Virus record (IMG/VR): IMGVR_UViG_3300045988_040537
Location: 1-15,754 of that record
Origin: a virus
DNA: 15,754 nucleotides
Reading direction: 5' to 3' (one strand)
The notes beneath the pieces were generated by a model, which did no database searches, was not told the DNA's origin, and was given only the letters and a program-made list of their open reading frames with translations. A program made the position numbers and the translations under genes. Shown one piece after another: positions 155-15,754 of this stretch (positions within the stretch are counted from its first letter, which is position 1; each line of letters opens with the position of its first letter).

Positions 155-558
155 CATGGAAGAGGTGAGTCGCAAGACCCGGGCGGCGATCCTCTCCATG
201 ACAGCCCGAACCGCGCGCGGGATTCACGTATGCGCGGACAGCCTGACAGCCTGACGCGAGAGCGTCAGACAGCCCGCCGCCGTGGCTGGTGGTGTGGTCG
301 TCGCCGCCGTGTATCTTGAAAACTGCATACAGGCCATGACAGCCCGGAACACGCGCAAACACGCCACGACGTGCAGAGCAGTAAAGCGCAGAGCGTGAAC
401 GTGTTTCCGGTGGGCAATCCTTAATGTTGTTTGGTAAATTGCCCGGCGGTATTCAACCCGCCTAAACATAGGGACAAAAATGTGGGATAGCCCTATGGGA
501 TGAAAAGTCTTTGAAAATTAAGACGAAACGCGCCCACGGCACGCCGCCACGCGCGGCG
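155..558 (+). ncRNA. GC-rich untranslated leader, candidate structured RNA (function unknown)
   Basis: No plus-strand ORF of 60 aa or more and no RBS. The region is visibly more GC-rich than the rest of the genome. A 5'-terminal stem pairs 155-165 with 191-200 (10 bp, one bulged A). A perfect 7-bp hairpin with a GAGA loop lies at 251-268. GACAGCC occurs five times. It lies directly downstream of the 121-149 promoter. Confidence 0.3.
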
Positions 559-2821: not shown

Positions 2822-3535
2822 ATGGCTAATGACTATTCTGCGGAATACGCTAAAGAAATAAAGCGAATAAAGAGCTTTACTTCTAAAGCAACTAAGAGGG
2901 GCTACAGATTCCCTGAAAATGTGGTTCCCGCAACGCCGAAAAGGGTAACTAAGAAATCACTAGAAAGAGTTCGCGCAATCACGCCACAAACACTATATCA
3001 AAAAGCAACATATTATGACCCGTTGACGGACGCTCTGTTTCCGGGCGAAGTAGGCCGCACCATTGAACGATCAAGAGCCGCGAAGAAGGCGGCAAAGACT
3101 AAATACGAAAAACACATAAAGACTACGGTTTCAGAACCCGGACAGCCACCTAACGACGTCGACACGGTGTTGCGATGGGTTGAAGATGAACTTGCTAAAT
3201 GGAACATCGAGGATTTAGGACTACCATCGTGGGCGCATTGGAAGCGCAGGACTATAACCTACGACAAGAACACCTTGCAAAGTGTACTTGATGGCGCAAT
3301 AGCCAGAGACGGCAGACGCGCAGTCGCACAAAGGTTACAAGCCCACGCCACACAGATAAACGATAACGTGACGGATATCCTATATAACATATCAGAACGA
3401 GCGAATGTAGCAAGTGAGCTTGTTTGGTTCGGGACAGTGATAAAGGGAGAAGCCTTAACCGAGCTAGAGCGTATGCGGATATCCGTTGCGGAAGTTGAAT
3501 TTGGTTGGGAAGATAATGAGGACGAGGTCTGGTAA
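2822..3535 (+). CDS. Candidate terminal protein (replication primer), 237 aa
   Basis: It lies immediately upstream of the protein-primed PolB and overlaps it, as phi29 gene 3 does with gene 2. The size is similar (237 versus 266 aa). The N-terminal half is basic and the C-terminus acidic. The genome has ITRs. I did not recognise any direct sequence motif. Confidence 0.6.
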   Translation: MANDYSAEYAKEIKRIKSFTSKATKRGYRFPENVVPATPKRVTKKSLERVRAITPQTLYQKATYYDPLTDALFPGEVGRTIERSRAAKKAAKTKYEKHIKTTVSEPGQPPNDVDTVLRWVEDELAKWNIEDLGLPSWAHWKRRTITYDKNTLQSVLDGAIARDGRRAVAQRLQAHATQINDNVTDILYNISERANVASELVWFGTVIKGEALTELERMRISVAEVEFGWEDNEDEVW

Positions 3536-5474
3536 AGTTTTGGTAGCCGACTTTGAAACAACCGTATACGAGGGGCAGGTCAATACAGAAGTTTGGGCGG
3601 CGGCGTGTGTTGAACTGTTCACAGAAGATGTGAAGATTTTTCACTCGATCGGTGAACTGTTCGACTACTTTGCCAGCCTAGAAAGCAACATCGTTTGCTA
3701 CTTCCACAACTTGAAGTTCGACGGTTCTTTCTGGCTAAGCTATCTCATGGATGTGCTCGGCTGGTCGCAAGCAATGGTTGTGCATGGCGAGGACGACATT
3801 GAATTTCTCAAGCCTAGGGAAATGCCAAACAACACATTTAGTTACAGCATATCTTCGATGGGGCAATGGTACAGAATACTTATTAAATACCGCAACAAGA
3901 TAATCGAATTGCGTGACAGCCTTAAACTACTACCATTCACAGTTGAAAAGATCGGTAAGAGCTTCAAGACAAAGCACAAGAAACTAGACATGGAGTACAC
4001 TGGTTTTCGCTTTGCTGGCTGCGAAATAACAGAGGACGAGAAAAAGTACATCGCCAACGACGTGCTTGTGGTCAAGGAAGCTGTTGAAATCATGTTTCAG
4101 GAAGGGCACAAGAAATTGACAATAGGGTCTTGCTGTTTGGCTGAGTATAGGCAGATTCTCGGCAACAAGAGATTCAACGAGCTTTTTCCTGATGTATATG
4201 AAATTCAGCTTGACGATTCATTTGGAAGTCCAAACGTTGGTAAATACATCAACCAGTCTTACCGGGGAGGATGGTGCTATTTAGCACGAGGAAAAGAACA
4301 GCAACTCAAGCATAATGGCACAACAGCAGATGTTAATTCACTGTACCCATCCATGATGTCGTCAGAATCCGGTAACACTTATCCCGTGGGAATCCCGACC
4401 TTTTGGCGAGGAGACTACATTCCAGAAGAAGCAAATGCTTACGACAAGTTTTATTTCGTTCGGTTCAAAACACGCTTTTATTTGCGCCCCGGAAAATTAC
4501 CTTTTATTCAGATAAAAAACACCCTTTCTTATCGTGCCAACGAAATGCTTGAATCCTCCGACCGCTATAACCCAGCAGATGGCAAGTATTACAAGGAGTA
4601 TTATGACGTAAACGGCGATTTACAGGAAGCAAGAGTTGTAATGACCATGACGCAGACCGACTTCAAGCTATTCAAGGAGCACTATGAACTGGTTGACTTT
4701 GAGATTCTGGATGGCTGTTACTTTGAAGCTAGAATAGGGATTTTTGACGAGTACATTGAGAAGTACAAGAAGATTAAGCTAGAGAGCACAGGAGCTAGGA
4801 GAGAGCTTGCTAAACTGTTCTTGAACAACCTGTACGGGAAAATGGCAAGTAGTCCTGTCAGCAACTTCAAGATAGCCTATCTAAAAGAGAACGGCGTAGT
4901 CGGCTTCAACACCATTCTAGCCAATGATAAGAAACCGGGCTACATCCCCGTCGGCTCTGCCATCACCAGTTACGCTAGATGCTTCACCATCCGCGCGGCA
5001 CAAGCGAACTATCAGGGCTCAGATAAACCCGGCTTCATCTACGCAGACACTGATTCAATACACTGTGACCTACCAGCAGACCAAATCAAGGGCATTAAAG
5101 TTCACGATAAGAATTTCTGTTGCTGGAAGCTAGAAAGTTCATGGGACGATGCTTACTTTGTGCGTCAGAAAACATACATTGAACATGTCACGCATGAGAA
5201 TCTTGAACCAGTAGACAAGCCTTATTACAGCGTTAAGTGCGCAGGAATGCCCCAGCACTGTAAAGACCTGTTCGTCATGAGTATGACAGGTGACTACGAC
5301 ACAGAACTAACAGAGGAAGAACAAGATTTTCTTTACTACGACAAAGAACACACGCAAAAGCACATTAGAACATTACAAGATTTTGATATAGGTCTATGTG
5401 TTCCCGGAAAACTTCGCCCTAAAACGATCAAAGGCGGCGTTCTGCTGGTGAACAGCATGTACCAAATGAGGTGA
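3516..5474 (+). CDS. Protein-primed family-B DNA polymerase
   Basis: Exonuclease motifs: ExoI VADFETT, ExoII FHNLKFDGSF, ExoIII YIANDVLV. Polymerase motifs: A DVNSLYPS, B KLFLNNLYGK, C YADTDS, and KxY QKTY. I prefer the ATG at 3516 to the TTG at 3486 used by the ORF track. The 20-nt overlap with the TP gene implies coupling. Confidence 0.95.
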   Translation: MRTRSGKVLVADFETTVYEGQVNTEVWAAACVELFTEDVKIFHSIGELFDYFASLESNIVCYFHNLKFDGSFWLSYLMDVLGWSQAMVVHGEDDIEFLKPREMPNNTFSYSISSMGQWYRILIKYRNKIIELRDSLKLLPFTVEKIGKSFKTKHKKLDMEYTGFRFAGCEITEDEKKYIANDVLVVKEAVEIMFQEGHKKLTIGSCCLAEYRQILGNKRFNELFPDVYEIQLDDSFGSPNVGKYINQSYRGGWCYLARGKEQQLKHNGTTADVNSLYPSMMSSESGNTYPVGIPTFWRGDYIPEEANAYDKFYFVRFKTRFYLRPGKLPFIQIKNTLSYRANEMLESSDRYNPADGKYYKEYYDVNGDLQEARVVMTMTQTDFKLFKEHYELVDFEILDGCYFEARIGIFDEYIEKYKKIKLESTGARRELAKLFLNNLYGKMASSPVSNFKIAYLKENGVVGFNTILANDKKPGYIPVGSAITSYARCFTIRAAQANYQGSDKPGFIYADTDSIHCDLPADQIKGIKVHDKNFCCWKLESSWDDAYFVRQKTYIEHVTHENLEPVDKPYYSVKCAGMPQHCKDLFVMSMTGDYDTELTEEEQDFLYYDKEHTQKHIRTLQDFDIGLCVPGKLRPKTIKGGVLLVNSMYQMR

Positions 5475-5477
5475 CAT

Positions 5478-5771
5478 ATGATTTACATTTTCAACGAGTT
5501 CAGCGGTCAGCCTATGCGCTTCAATATGACCGTGTTAGCGCCTGACAATCCATATCAAGTAGTGGACATTTATGTGCGGTCAGACCTACGCAACACCGAC
5601 CTTAAAATGTCGGAATTCAGGCCGTGCCATGAATGGAAAGAGGTTCGCTCGATTCTTGAGCACTTTGGTTTTGCCAAAGAGCGCGATCAATTTCTTTACT
5701 TCCGCGATGGCAAGATTATTCCAGCTCTTTCCAGCGTGGGTTACGACGGGCTTTTCACAGTAACAGTCTAA
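5478..5771 (+). CDS. Hypothetical protein (97 aa), positional analogue of phi29 gene 1
   Basis: ATG lies 4 nt after the polymerase stop, with a GAGGTG RBS. No motif recognised. Confidence 0.65.
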   Translation: MIYIFNEFSGQPMRFNMTVLAPDNPYQVVDIYVRSDLRNTDLKMSEFRPCHEWKEVRSILEHFGFAKERDQFLYFRDGKIIPALSSVGYDGLFTVTV

Positions 5772-5774
5772 ACT

Positions 5775-5809
5775 AAAATCCCCTGTAGAATCATCTACAG
5801 GGGATTTTT
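5775..5809. terminator. Bidirectional intrinsic terminator between convergent genes
   Basis: aaaatcccctgtaga (5775-5789) pairs with tctacaggggatttt (5794-5808) around a 4-nt loop. An A-tract on one side and a T-tract on the other give a U-tail on either strand. Confidence 0.85.
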
Positions 5810-5922
5810 CATATCTGTAACTCTTGCAACCACAAAGCGGTTGACTTCCGATATTCTGTGCGGGCAGTTTGTTTCACCTGTGTCACCCCGTCAGACCAGT
5901 GCAGTATACAAGAGCAGATACC

Positions 5923-6957
5923 TTAATAAGAGAGTGCTTTGAGTACAGCTTCTTTACAACGGAGGTCTTTAAAGCGGAAACACCCATGCTCAAAATAGTA
6001 TCTCATGTTAGCAATAAAGAAGTCGTTCTTCTTGAGCATAACATAGTTCACGTCATGGTCGTCAGTTGTAACTGTAATGCGCACTCTGAATGTTCTGTCT
6101 GGTGTTGTATCACAGTATACAATTCCGCGCTCAGGGTATTCCCTGATTCCAAACTCCGTGTTTTTATACTTTAGTGTCGCAATGTATCTACTTTCGCCAG
6201 CAGGTTTCTCGATGAACGCCTGACTGTCATTCAGGTACACGCACTCACTCGAATATGCAACATAGCTATTGCGTGCAAAGGCTCTATTAAACCCACTTTC
6301 TTTCTGTGCCTTACTTGCACTATCGACAAACCCCTGTTCAAGCACAAAGCCGTCACCCCGGAGGAAGCGCGTGGAATCGTTAAGTCTTTCGCTTATACCC
6401 ATTTCCACATAGTAGGGATTGATTATCGACACAGGGTTGGCGCACATATAGACAGGCACATAACGCACCTGTTCGCCGTGACCTCTGGCAATACTGGTAT
6501 GCACAGACAGTAGCTTTCTAATTTCATCCTGACAGTAGTGATTAGTCTCACTCTGAAATTCATCGAAGAACATCCGTTGCACATCACTGAACAGGTGACT
6601 ATACTTTTTAAGCTGGTCTGCGCTGTTCAGGGAAATAGCATATCCGCAACTATCATCATCCAAATATAACTCATGGAAGATGCCAGAAGCGCGCCGTCTG
6701 CTTGTCATTACAGAACCTGCAAAGAACAGCCCAGCAATGTCCTTAAAGAATTTGTCTGCGCAATCATCCAGTTCATAGTTATACCTGTAAACAAGGCAGA
6801 ACTTTTCTCCACGATCTTTGAATCTGTTCACAAGCATACGGGAGAAGTACACAGTCTTACCGCCTGTGCGGTTAGTAGTACACATATAAATTTCCGGCTT
6901 CTTGCCATTCAGGTCTTTCATGCTGAGTAACTTTGTGCCATCATAATATTTTCCCAT
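5923..6957 (-). CDS. DNA encapsidation (packaging) ATPase, phi29 gp16-like
   Basis: Walker A is NRTGGKT and Walker B is MFFDEF. CANPVSIINPYYVEMGI parallels phi29 gp16 CLSNAVSVVNPYFLFFNL, and the C-terminal GCFRFKDLRCKEAVLKAL parallels GYLRFDNQVIRNIAYELF. AAAGGGAG RBS. Confidence 0.9.
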   Translation of the reverse strand: MGKYYDGTKLLSMKDLNGKKPEIYMCTTNRTGGKTVYFSRMLVNRFKDRGEKFCLVYRYNYELDDCADKFFKDIAGLFFAGSVMTSRRRASGIFHELYLDDDSCGYAISLNSADQLKKYSHLFSDVQRMFFDEFQSETNHYCQDEIRKLLSVHTSIARGHGEQVRYVPVYMCANPVSIINPYYVEMGISERLNDSTRFLRGDGFVLEQGFVDSASKAQKESGFNRAFARNSYVAYSSECVYLNDSQAFIEKPAGESRYIATLKYKNTEFGIREYPERGIVYCDTTPDRTFRVRITVTTDDHDVNYVMLKKNDFFIANMRYYFEHGCFRFKDLRCKEAVLKALSY

Positions 6958-6989
6958 TCGCTTGTCACTCCCTTTATCTATTCATAATC

Positions 6990-7018
6990 ATTATAACATA
7001 TTGCTTGACAAAAATCAA
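6990..7018 (-). promoter_or_regulatory. Leftward promoter for the packaging ATPase
   Basis: Read on the minus strand: -35 TTGATT (7018-7013), a 17-nt spacer, extended -10 TGtTATAAT (6998-6990). Confidence 0.6.
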
Positions 7019-7033
7019 CCCCTATGATATAAT
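7005..7033 (+). promoter_or_regulatory. Rightward promoter for the lysis/structural operon
   Basis: TTGACA (7005-7010), a 17-nt spacer, extended -10 TGaTATAAT (7025-7033). Confidence 0.75.
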
Positions 7034-7082
7034 TTATAGTAGGTTAAAGACCTGAAAATTAAAAATGAAACGGAGTGGTCGC

Positions 7083-7541
7083 ATGAAGATGGACGTATTC
7101 AAAGCCGCAGTCGCCGCCGCAATTGGAGCGCTTGTTGCTTATGGGGTACAGCTTTTCATCCCCTGTATCGTGCTTGTTGTAGTCATGCTGTTGGACTACA
7201 TCACCGGCATGGTGAAGGCGTGGGAAGCTGGCGAACTGAGTAGCAAGATCGGTATCAAAGGCATTCTCAAGAAGTTGGGCTACCTTGTTATCGTATCTGT
7301 AGCGTGTGTGGTGGACTGGTGTGTGCGCTATGGCGCGGAAAGTGTTGGTATGGATTGGAAGTTTGAATTTCTGTTTGCTTCCATCGTGCTTCTCTGGCTG
7401 GTTATTAATGAACTTATTTCAATCCTCGAAAACGTCTCAGCCATTGGCGCGCCCGTCCCTGCTTTCCTGACAACAATTATTAACAAACTCAAGACCAGTA
7501 CTGAGAACAAGGTAGGTGACAACGAAGATGAAAATCATTGA
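7083..7541 (+). CDS. Holin (Phage_holin_4_1 / toxin-secretion holin type)
   Basis: Several hydrophobic helices. The signature LDYITGMVKAW...SSKIGIKGILKKLGYLVIV is typical of holin family 4_1. GGAG lies 7 nt before the ATG at 7083. The ATG at 7065 is possible but has no RBS. Confidence 0.85.
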   Translation: MKMDVFKAAVAAAIGALVAYGVQLFIPCIVLVVVMLLDYITGMVKAWEAGELSSKIGIKGILKKLGYLVIVSVACVVDWCVRYGAESVGMDWKFEFLFASIVLLWLVINELISILENVSAIGAPVPAFLTTIINKLKTSTENKVGDNEDENH

Positions 7542-15722: not shown

Positions 15723-15754
15723 ACTGGAGTACCGAAAAAATGCATACGGATACC
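15723..15754. repeat. Right inverted terminal repeat (32 bp)
   Basis: actggagtaccgaaaaaatgcatacggatacc is the exact reverse complement of 1-32. Confidence 0.95.

Follow-up and report, generated by a model that had tools for sequence, protein, structure and literature searches.

Interleaved, two-fold symmetric divergent promoters between the packaging ATPase gene and the late operon of a phi29-like phage family, and a pRNA-like RNA in the ATPase unit

Competition between overlapping divergent promoters has been documented for the gonococcal mtrR/mtrCDE pair, for the Pc/Pr pair of the Bacillus subtilis plasmid pLS20, and for synthetic and Escherichia coli pairs. At mtrR/mtrCDE, changes that improve a -35 box have been proposed to shift polymerase between the two promoters, and the authors of the pLS20 work concluded that polymerase cannot bind both promoters at once and is therefore itself part of a switch. 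Combining a model with experiment on a synthetic promoter, Bendtsen et al. (2011) found that a high-occupancy consensus promoter with an extended -10 box inhibits its overlapping partner; in their treatment, two promoters overlap when the reverse start lies between -80 and +20 of the forward promoter, the footprint of the polymerase extends from about -55 to +20, and a switch requires either a regulator or strongly unequal promoters. According to Grainger's group, competition arises only at high activity. With regard to the packaging motor of phi29, complementarity between the bulge and the D loop is the basis of ring formation by the packaging RNA (pRNA), and a 2024 review lists pRNA as known only for phi29 and related Bacillus phages.

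The DNA analyzed here (hereinafter the window) comprises all 15,754 nucleotides of the IMG/VR virus record IMGVR_UViG_3300045988_040537 and, given its 32-bp inverted terminal repeats (1-32 and 15723-15754), represents the complete linear genome of a small phi29-like podovirus. The encoded proteins include a protein-primed-type DNA polymerase, a phi29-type SSB, a weak p6-like protein, a holin, an endolysin, and the major head, tail, connector and collar proteins; a megablast search of the whole window against the phage collection produced no match. All supported genes are on the plus strand except for the gene of the packaging ATPase of the phi29 gp16 type (5923-6957, minus strand; phrog_2150 terminase, E 1.9e-52), and no other minus-strand gene is supported in the window. 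The ATPase shows 69% identity to the protein annotated for DNA packaging in the cultured Clostridium symbiosum phages CS229P1-3 and 75% identity to a homologue on a human gut contig; CS229P2 has the same gene order, again with only the packaging gene inverted. The first-pass annotation of this DNA, which was made from the sequence alone, regarded the region upstream of the ATPase gene as the only strand-switch region of the genome. It is indeed the only divergent one, but the ATPase gene also takes part in a convergent junction (5772-5922), between the stop codons of the early operon (5771) and of the ATPase gene (5923). This junction contains a strong hairpin (5775-5809) with a 15-bp stem and flanking A and T runs, which is probably a two-way terminator of the early operon and the ATPase-RNA unit (see below for the RNA); a search of Rfam with positions 5770-5935 matched only the terminator parts of leader families.

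Among the early ORFs, that at 2053-2358 has a full-length but weak match to phrog_6370 (p6-type; E = 1.5e-4) and no Pfam match. In agreement with the first-pass annotation, no p4 homologue was detectable among the early ORFs with PHROG or Pfam, searches which a very divergent p4 could escape, and several small early proteins belong to no family recognisable in these two collections. All promoters that can be recognised in the window are of the host housekeeping type. Apart from the pair described below, the window contains a single perfect promoter (1875-1903, TTGACA-17-TGtTATAAT), located upstream of the genes for the p6-like protein, the SSB-like protein, the putative terminal protein and the polymerase. 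A promoter-like site at 120-150 (TTGCAT-17-TGcTATACT) is followed by approximately 450 nt of G+C-rich non-coding sequence (region 120-600), in which the motif GACAGCCYG occurs five times at 200-346 (0.18 copies expected, with no shuffled sequence reaching five).

The promoter core (6990-7033, both strands) is a 44-bp, two-fold symmetric segment composed of the leftward -10 hexamer, 9 bp, the rightward -35 hexamer, 2 bp, the leftward -35 hexamer, 9 bp and the rightward -10 hexamer. The rightward sigma-A-type promoter (7005-7033, plus strand) consists of TTGACA (7005-7010), a 17-nt spacer and TGaTATAAT (7025-7033), whereas the leftward one (6990-7018, minus strand) consists of TTGATT (7018-7013), a 17-nt spacer and TGtTATAAT (6998-6990); in the promoter scan of the window, they matched the consensus at 12 of 12 and 10 of 12 positions, respectively, each with a TG upstream of the -10 hexamer. 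The two -35 hexamers are thus only 2 bp apart, and each lies within the spacer of the other promoter. The extended -10 element of the rightward promoter, TaTGaTATAAT (7023-7033, plus strand), is of the TRTG type and has the counterpart TaTGtTATAAT (7000-6990, minus strand) in the leftward promoter. The -10 hexamers (6990-6995 and 7028-7033) are separated by 32 bp, and the predicted transcription starts (approximately 7039-7041 rightward and 6982-6984 leftward) by about 57 bp. The sequence was re-read along with the promoter scan, and all coordinates and sequences of the first-pass annotation proved correct, including the arms attataacata and tatgatataat, which are complementary at 10 of 11 positions around a centre at 7011.5; a repeat finder extends these arms to 19 nt (6990-7008 and 7015-7033) at 79% complementarity. 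The inverted repeat is fully explained by the Gram-positive extended -10 consensus, TRTGnTATAAT, being present twice.

The significance of the layout was assessed with a model of 22 specified bases, ATTATANCA-N6-TTG-N8-CAA-N6-TGNTATAAT. The window contains a single match to this model, with no mismatches, and none of the 200 dinucleotide-preserving shuffles of the window matched even when up to three mismatches were allowed. The window shows no excess of generic promoter-like sites (24 compared to 20.7 +/- 4.8 expected); the signal of the promoter pair is one of quality and geometry, not of the number of sites.

The predicted 5' leader of the ATPase mRNA (6958-6983, minus strand) contains a Shine-Dalgarno sequence, GGGAG (6972-6968), 10 nt before the ATG at 6957. 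Across the family, the distance from the leftward -10 hexamer to the ATPase ATG is mostly about 23-39 nt, with outliers at 15-19 and 42-62 nt; in the loci L024, L027 and L084 (approximately 2990-3000), the start codon is located only 5-6 nt past the -10 hexamer, which suggests that the respective ATPase mRNAs are leaderless or nearly so. On the other side of the core, the first gene of the rightward operon encodes a holin (7083-7541, plus strand; phrog_199, E 3.7e-21, with the alignment beginning at residue 11 when the ORF is read from 7065). The likely start codon is the ATG at 7083 rather than the listed one at 7065, given the GGAG at 7072-7075 and the extent of the PHROG alignment. The holin gene is followed by genes for the endolysin and for capsid, tail and connector proteins. 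A perfect 11-nt inverted repeat that flanks the core (6908-6918 and 7046-7056) was considered as a functional element and is treated as probably due to chance: it is common only to the window and L002, is broken without compensation in the nearest relative (L001) and is absent elsewhere. The flanking inverted repeats that do recur in the relatives are the two Shine-Dalgarno sites.

A protein-guided search of IMG/VR identified 209 relatives, of which 80 loci were retrieved and compared together with the window. The exact 44-bp geometry is present in 68 of these 81 loci, and most of the others are interleaved as well, with a span of 41-43 bp, gaps of 3-5 bp between the -35 hexamers and both spacers of 17 bp. 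When later loci were added, the layout model fitted 183 of 196 related loci, which contain 126 distinct cores. In 24 representatives with less than 85% identity, the two -10 hexamers, the two TG/CA dinucleotides, the T/A of TRTG and TTG...CAA approach the maximal information content, and the spacer positions have next to none. This profile is that of two promoters, with no other conservation in the core, and the comparison shows purifying selection on the boxes, on their spacing and on the two-fold geometry throughout a large family of phages. The interdigitation of two real-looking promoters that was proposed in the first-pass annotation is thereby borne out.

The central 14-mer of the core varies widely between lineages; in L005, L007, L107 and L121, it is TTGATTTTTGTCAA, the exact reverse complement of the one in the window (TTGACAAAAATCAA), so that in these phages the perfect -35 box faces the ATPase gene instead of the late operon. 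A search of 2.9 million viral contigs for the exact pattern yielded at least 119 matches, and among the 80 listed, 76 are located directly upstream of an ATPase homologue of this phage family, of which the layout is a hallmark; it is also present in CS229P2, a phage in culture. Every insertion or deletion disrupts at least one of the two 17-bp spacers, and this may be the reason why the exact 44-bp spacing is fixed, in which case the conserved geometry speaks less strongly for a function of the interleaving than for that of the individual promoters. A 44-bp core is also found in a distant phi29-like phage (polymerase 28% identical), in this case between co-directional genes (L119 4112-4155 and L093 744-787); the leftward promoter of this phage would have no gene to serve and may produce an antisense or small RNA.

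Several natural variants depart from the interleaved layout. In L067, two perfect promoters are arranged back to back, without interleaving, over a 74-bp span. In MT836152, in which the ATPase is 39% identical and is likewise inverted, both promoters are again un-interleaved, with adjacent -35 boxes (TGTCAAGACTTGACA) and 16-bp spacers. The phages HM2 and MT835904 have a co-directional ATPase gene and no such promoter region. Given that both promoters persist when separated, each of them is apparently functional and interleaving is not obligatory.

The same 44-bp pattern occurs in bacteria at least 120 times in one-genome-per-species contigs, compared to 0.03-3 occurrences expected from composition. 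The large-collection scans covered the 44-bp geometry only, so these counts, like those for the viral contigs, carry no information on a preference over spans of 41-46 bp. Among the bacterial matches listed, 73 are located between nusA and the RNase J gene in Saccharibacteria (L205-L323; for example, L206 1721-1764), with the core consensus ATTATAGCAAAnnnCTTGAAAAAATGCAAGnnnTTTGGTATAAT; 12 adjoin an ORF of 74 amino acids in Anaerococcus and Peptoniphilus; 7 represent the present phage family binned into metagenome-assembled genomes (MAGs); and 28 are found in other contexts, many of them between divergent ORFs. The layout thus works with the host polymerase alone at housekeeping genes, and it recurs independently. 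The version next to the 74-amino-acid ORF has perfect 18-bp arms, ATTATACCACAAGTGTTG ... CAACACTTGTGGTATAAT (L150 368-411, L204, L215, L234 and others, and also one 33-kb viral contig), and these sites look likely to be true dyad operators. The phage members found in MAGs (L212, L219, L242, L295, L298, L299 and L318) come from bins that include Agathobacter sp., Coprobacillaceae and Clostridia, which may hint at the hosts.

Taken together, these observations lead us to consider it probable, although by no means assured, that the two strong, interleaved sigma-A-type promoters represent a compact device for co-expressing two units and setting their ratio with the host polymerase alone, rather than a regulated temporal switch. 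Under this scenario, the leftward promoter would drive a packaging-motor unit of about 1.2 kb that consists of the ATPase gene, the pRNA-like RNA and the terminator, and the rightward promoter would drive the lysis and structural operon. The assignment of the ATPase gene to the leftward promoter, made already in the first-pass annotation, holds: this is the only minus-strand gene, and no other promoter is predicted for it. With the predicted starts about 57 bp apart, the footprints of two polymerases would overlap almost completely and only one polymerase would be bound at a time. Mutual exclusion, which had also been proposed previously, is a reasonable and likely inference, given that this distance falls inside the interval from -80 to +20 and that both promoters are near-consensus, although it is drawn from E. 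coli footprints and not from those of a clostridial polymerase. The two units would then share a single entry site, with initiations split between them according to how the -35 and -10 boxes of one promoter compare in quality with those of the other; each promoter escape would free the site, so that both units would be expressed together over time. Without a regulator, such an arrangement amounts to partition rather than to a switch. Co-expression is in keeping with the content of the two units, both of which encode late functions that are required together. Under the twin-domain model, supercoiling is induced by transcription. A positive coupling of the two units via such supercoiling is possible.

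A more far-reaching version of the co-expression reading is that the 44-bp two-fold symmetric pair with interleaved -35 boxes constitutes a distinct, recurrent class of bidirectional promoters, with starts about 57 bp apart and one entry site, which is found in gut phages and independently in bacteria, and which in these phages couples the cassette of the ATPase and packaging RNA to the late operon solely through the choice of orientation by the polymerase, without a p4-like protein. We put this forward only tentatively and consider it doubtful at present.

The first-pass annotation interpreted the 44-bp core as a built-in either/or switch. In its regulated form, this interpretation implies that a phage or host factor biases the polymerase toward one promoter and thus separates the expression of the ATPase and RNA from that of the lysis and structural genes in time, replacing p4. 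The overlapping layout would give a regulator leverage on both promoters at once, p4 is absent, several early proteins belong to no recognised family, and the p6-like protein is weakly detected; moreover, near-consensus promoters on a late operon leave the early/late timing unexplained, which makes an undetected regulator possible. The -35 scores of the two promoters also show a negative correlation (r = -0.2, p ~0.05-0.08), but one too weak to be relied upon. However, no regulator was found, no positions outside of the promoter boxes are conserved as an operator would be, and the free mirrored positions are not palindromic. Neither is one side consistently stronger: of the representatives, 18 have the better -35 box on the right and 18 on the left, with 10 ties. 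The late functions that are needed together are encoded in both units, the natural variants L067 and MT836152 are un-interleaved, and the identical layout is found at the nusA/RNase J housekeeping genes of Saccharibacteria. Accordingly, the switch interpretation fares poorly, and we consider it unlikely.

Still less probable is that the central palindrome, TTGACA-NN-TGTCAA, serves as an operator for a dimeric repressor that shuts both promoters, as might happen at an early stage of infection or in a carrier state. Many members of the family have a dyad-like centre, such as TTGACAAAAGTCAA, and some of the unrelated 44-bp patterns have long perfect arms, such as the 18-bp ones next to the 74-amino-acid ORF of Anaerococcus and Peptoniphilus. 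Nevertheless, when a dyad operator beyond the promoter boxes was sought, the free mirrored positions were complementary at 1.67 of 6, compared to 1.95 expected from pairing the arms of different phages, and across the phage family the inner -35 positions were less complementary than by chance (1.07 of 3 compared to 1.39 of 3, z = -2.5). The variability of the central 14-mer between lineages also argues against an operator, as does the lack of a helix-turn-helix protein detectable among the early ORFs by PHROG or Pfam. Thus, the symmetric conservation beyond the needs of the promoters that characterises dyad operators of the tetR/tetA or bio type is not observed here.

The zone of UP elements upstream of bacterial promoters includes approximately -50 to -45. 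The leftward -10 hexamer occupies this very zone with respect to the rightward promoter, but the idea that a single promoter fires and that symmetry has produced the other, for instance as an A/T-rich element upstream of the active one, is highly improbable because the C-A corresponding to the TG of the extended -10 and the full hexamer are conserved on both sides, the ATPase gene needs a promoter and has no other candidate, both promoters are kept when separated in L067 and MT836152, and a Shine-Dalgarno sequence and an ATG follow at a conserved distance downstream.

The leftward unit also encompasses a structured RNA of 112 nt with the architecture of the phi29 pRNA (5811-5922, minus strand), which is located directly after the stop codon of the ATPase gene and is followed by the terminator. 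It consists of a terminal helix, a C helix, a bulge, an E hairpin and a D hairpin. In an alignment of 28 representatives, the hand-drawn structure has 90.7% of cells paired, compared to 30-41% in slid controls, with double changes in 29 of the 38 pairs. Four nucleotides of the bulge pair with the D loop (columns 40-44 versus 85-88) in 94.6% of cells, with double changes in all 4 pairs; as read from the alignment, this pairing would look alike within and between molecules. In the window, the respective tetranucleotides are TGAC/GTCA; L003 has AAGC/GCTT, and L018 and L010 have AACC/GGTT. Within the 3' end of the window's ATPase gene, no promoter dedicated to the RNA is predicted, and co-transcription with the ATPase is therefore the simplest reading. 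The genome opens with the same six bases, GGTATC, as does the RNA at its conserved 5' end (GGTATCTGC).

The covariance model of this RNA, R1, scores 102 bits at the RNA, its sole match in the window, and has one match in CS229P2 and a single match in each of 80 relatives out of 80, invariably on the strand of the ATPase gene and 0-60 nt after the ATPase stop codon. Against the phi29 pRNA (209-315, minus strand), R1 aligns from end to end but with a score of only 6.6 bits, and Rfam gave no family match at E <= 1 for the whole window, nor did its pRNA model match at E <= 10 in a segment of 166 nt. The RNA thus shows the pRNA architecture with covariation and the covarying complementarity of the bulge and the D loop, but not an Rfam or reciprocal profile match to the pRNA class. 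There is no significant R1 match in HM2, MT835904 and MT836152, and the best non-significant full-length alignments in these three phages lie just after the ATPase gene. In HM2 and MT835904 (L082 4048-4152 and L083 4070-4174), these alignments are on the ATPase strand, with E = 0.35-0.47 within a few hundred nucleotides, and these two phages may possess versions of the RNA that have diverged further.

The promoter pair is a natural, highly conserved test case for polymerase competition, in which both promoters are near-consensus and no regulator is evident; the "uncoupled" variants in L067 and MT836152 and the cultured relatives CS229P1-3 provide material for comparison. For this branch of the phi29-like phages, control of the late genes according to the p4 model can be dismissed. 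Should the 112-nt RNA be a genuine packaging RNA, the distribution of this unusual motor component would extend beyond Bacillus phages, and approximately 95 distinct natural sequences, 31 of them below 80% identity, would become available for work on the packaging motor and in RNA nanotechnology.

Compared with the systems described previously, the promoter pair belongs to a known kind, the overlapping divergent promoters, of which it is an unusually clean and widespread example; given the documented cases of competition, the suggestion in the first-pass annotation that the control logic may be new was overstated. The closest precedent is mtrR/mtrCDE of Neisseria gonorrhoeae, where housekeeping-sigma promoters on opposite strands have adjacent -35 hexamers, one of which lies between the -10 and -35 boxes of the other promoter. 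The mtr region, however, is bound by the repressor MtrR and the activator MtrA, whereas no regulator or operator is evident for the phage core, in which both promoters are near-consensus, have extended -10 boxes, follow an exact two-fold geometry and serve a packaging cassette and a late operon. The pLS20 Pc/Pr pair resembles the phage core in consisting of sigma-A promoters in a Gram-positive element; in that case, each promoter has its -10 box where the other has its -35 box, whereas in the phage it is the -35 boxes that cross, with the -10 boxes kept apart. Furthermore, Pc is several hundred-fold stronger than Pr, and control is exerted by RcoLS20 and DNA looping.

With -35 and -10 boxes on both strands and both spacers of 17 bp, within the 16-18 bp range of the class, the core represents tail-to-tail overlapping divergent housekeeping-sigma promoters in the sense of Bendtsen et al. 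(2011), with a predicted reverse start at about -57; that class is a general one, based on E. coli data, and includes neither a fixed 44-bp symmetric geometry nor conservation across a phage family. The bidirectional promoters of Warman, Grainger and colleagues are similar in that pseudo-symmetric DNA engages the polymerase in two orientations, but they share a -10 element and have starts 7-25 bp apart, most often 18, compared to the predicted 57 bp or so in the phage; by their definition, the core is a separate divergent promoter pair.

In the A2c/A2b/A3 region of phi29, which p4 and p6 control, divergent promoters are also located near the late operon, and an SSB-like protein and, going by a weak match, a p6-like protein are encoded in the present phage. 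However, A3 has a -10 box (5178-5183) without a usable -35 box and depends on p4 bound at 5095-5121, whereas the rightward promoter described here has a perfect TTGACA and should not need an activator, and no p4 homologue is detectable. The early promoters of phi29 lie approximately 70-200 bp from A3 and are not interleaved with it, and the leftward unit in the present phages consists of the ATPase gene and the RNA instead of replication genes. Of the two elements of the locus, the pRNA-like RNA is the more novel result. It resembles the phi29 pRNA in size (about 115-120 nt in phi29), in the terminal helix formed by the 5' and 3' ends, in the presence of the C helix, bulge, E and D hairpins in the same order, and in the pairing of four bulge nucleotides with the D loop, which in some members is AACC/GGUU as in phi29; unlike the phi29 pRNA, which is encoded at the genome's left end and has its own promoter, it directly follows the ATPase gene.
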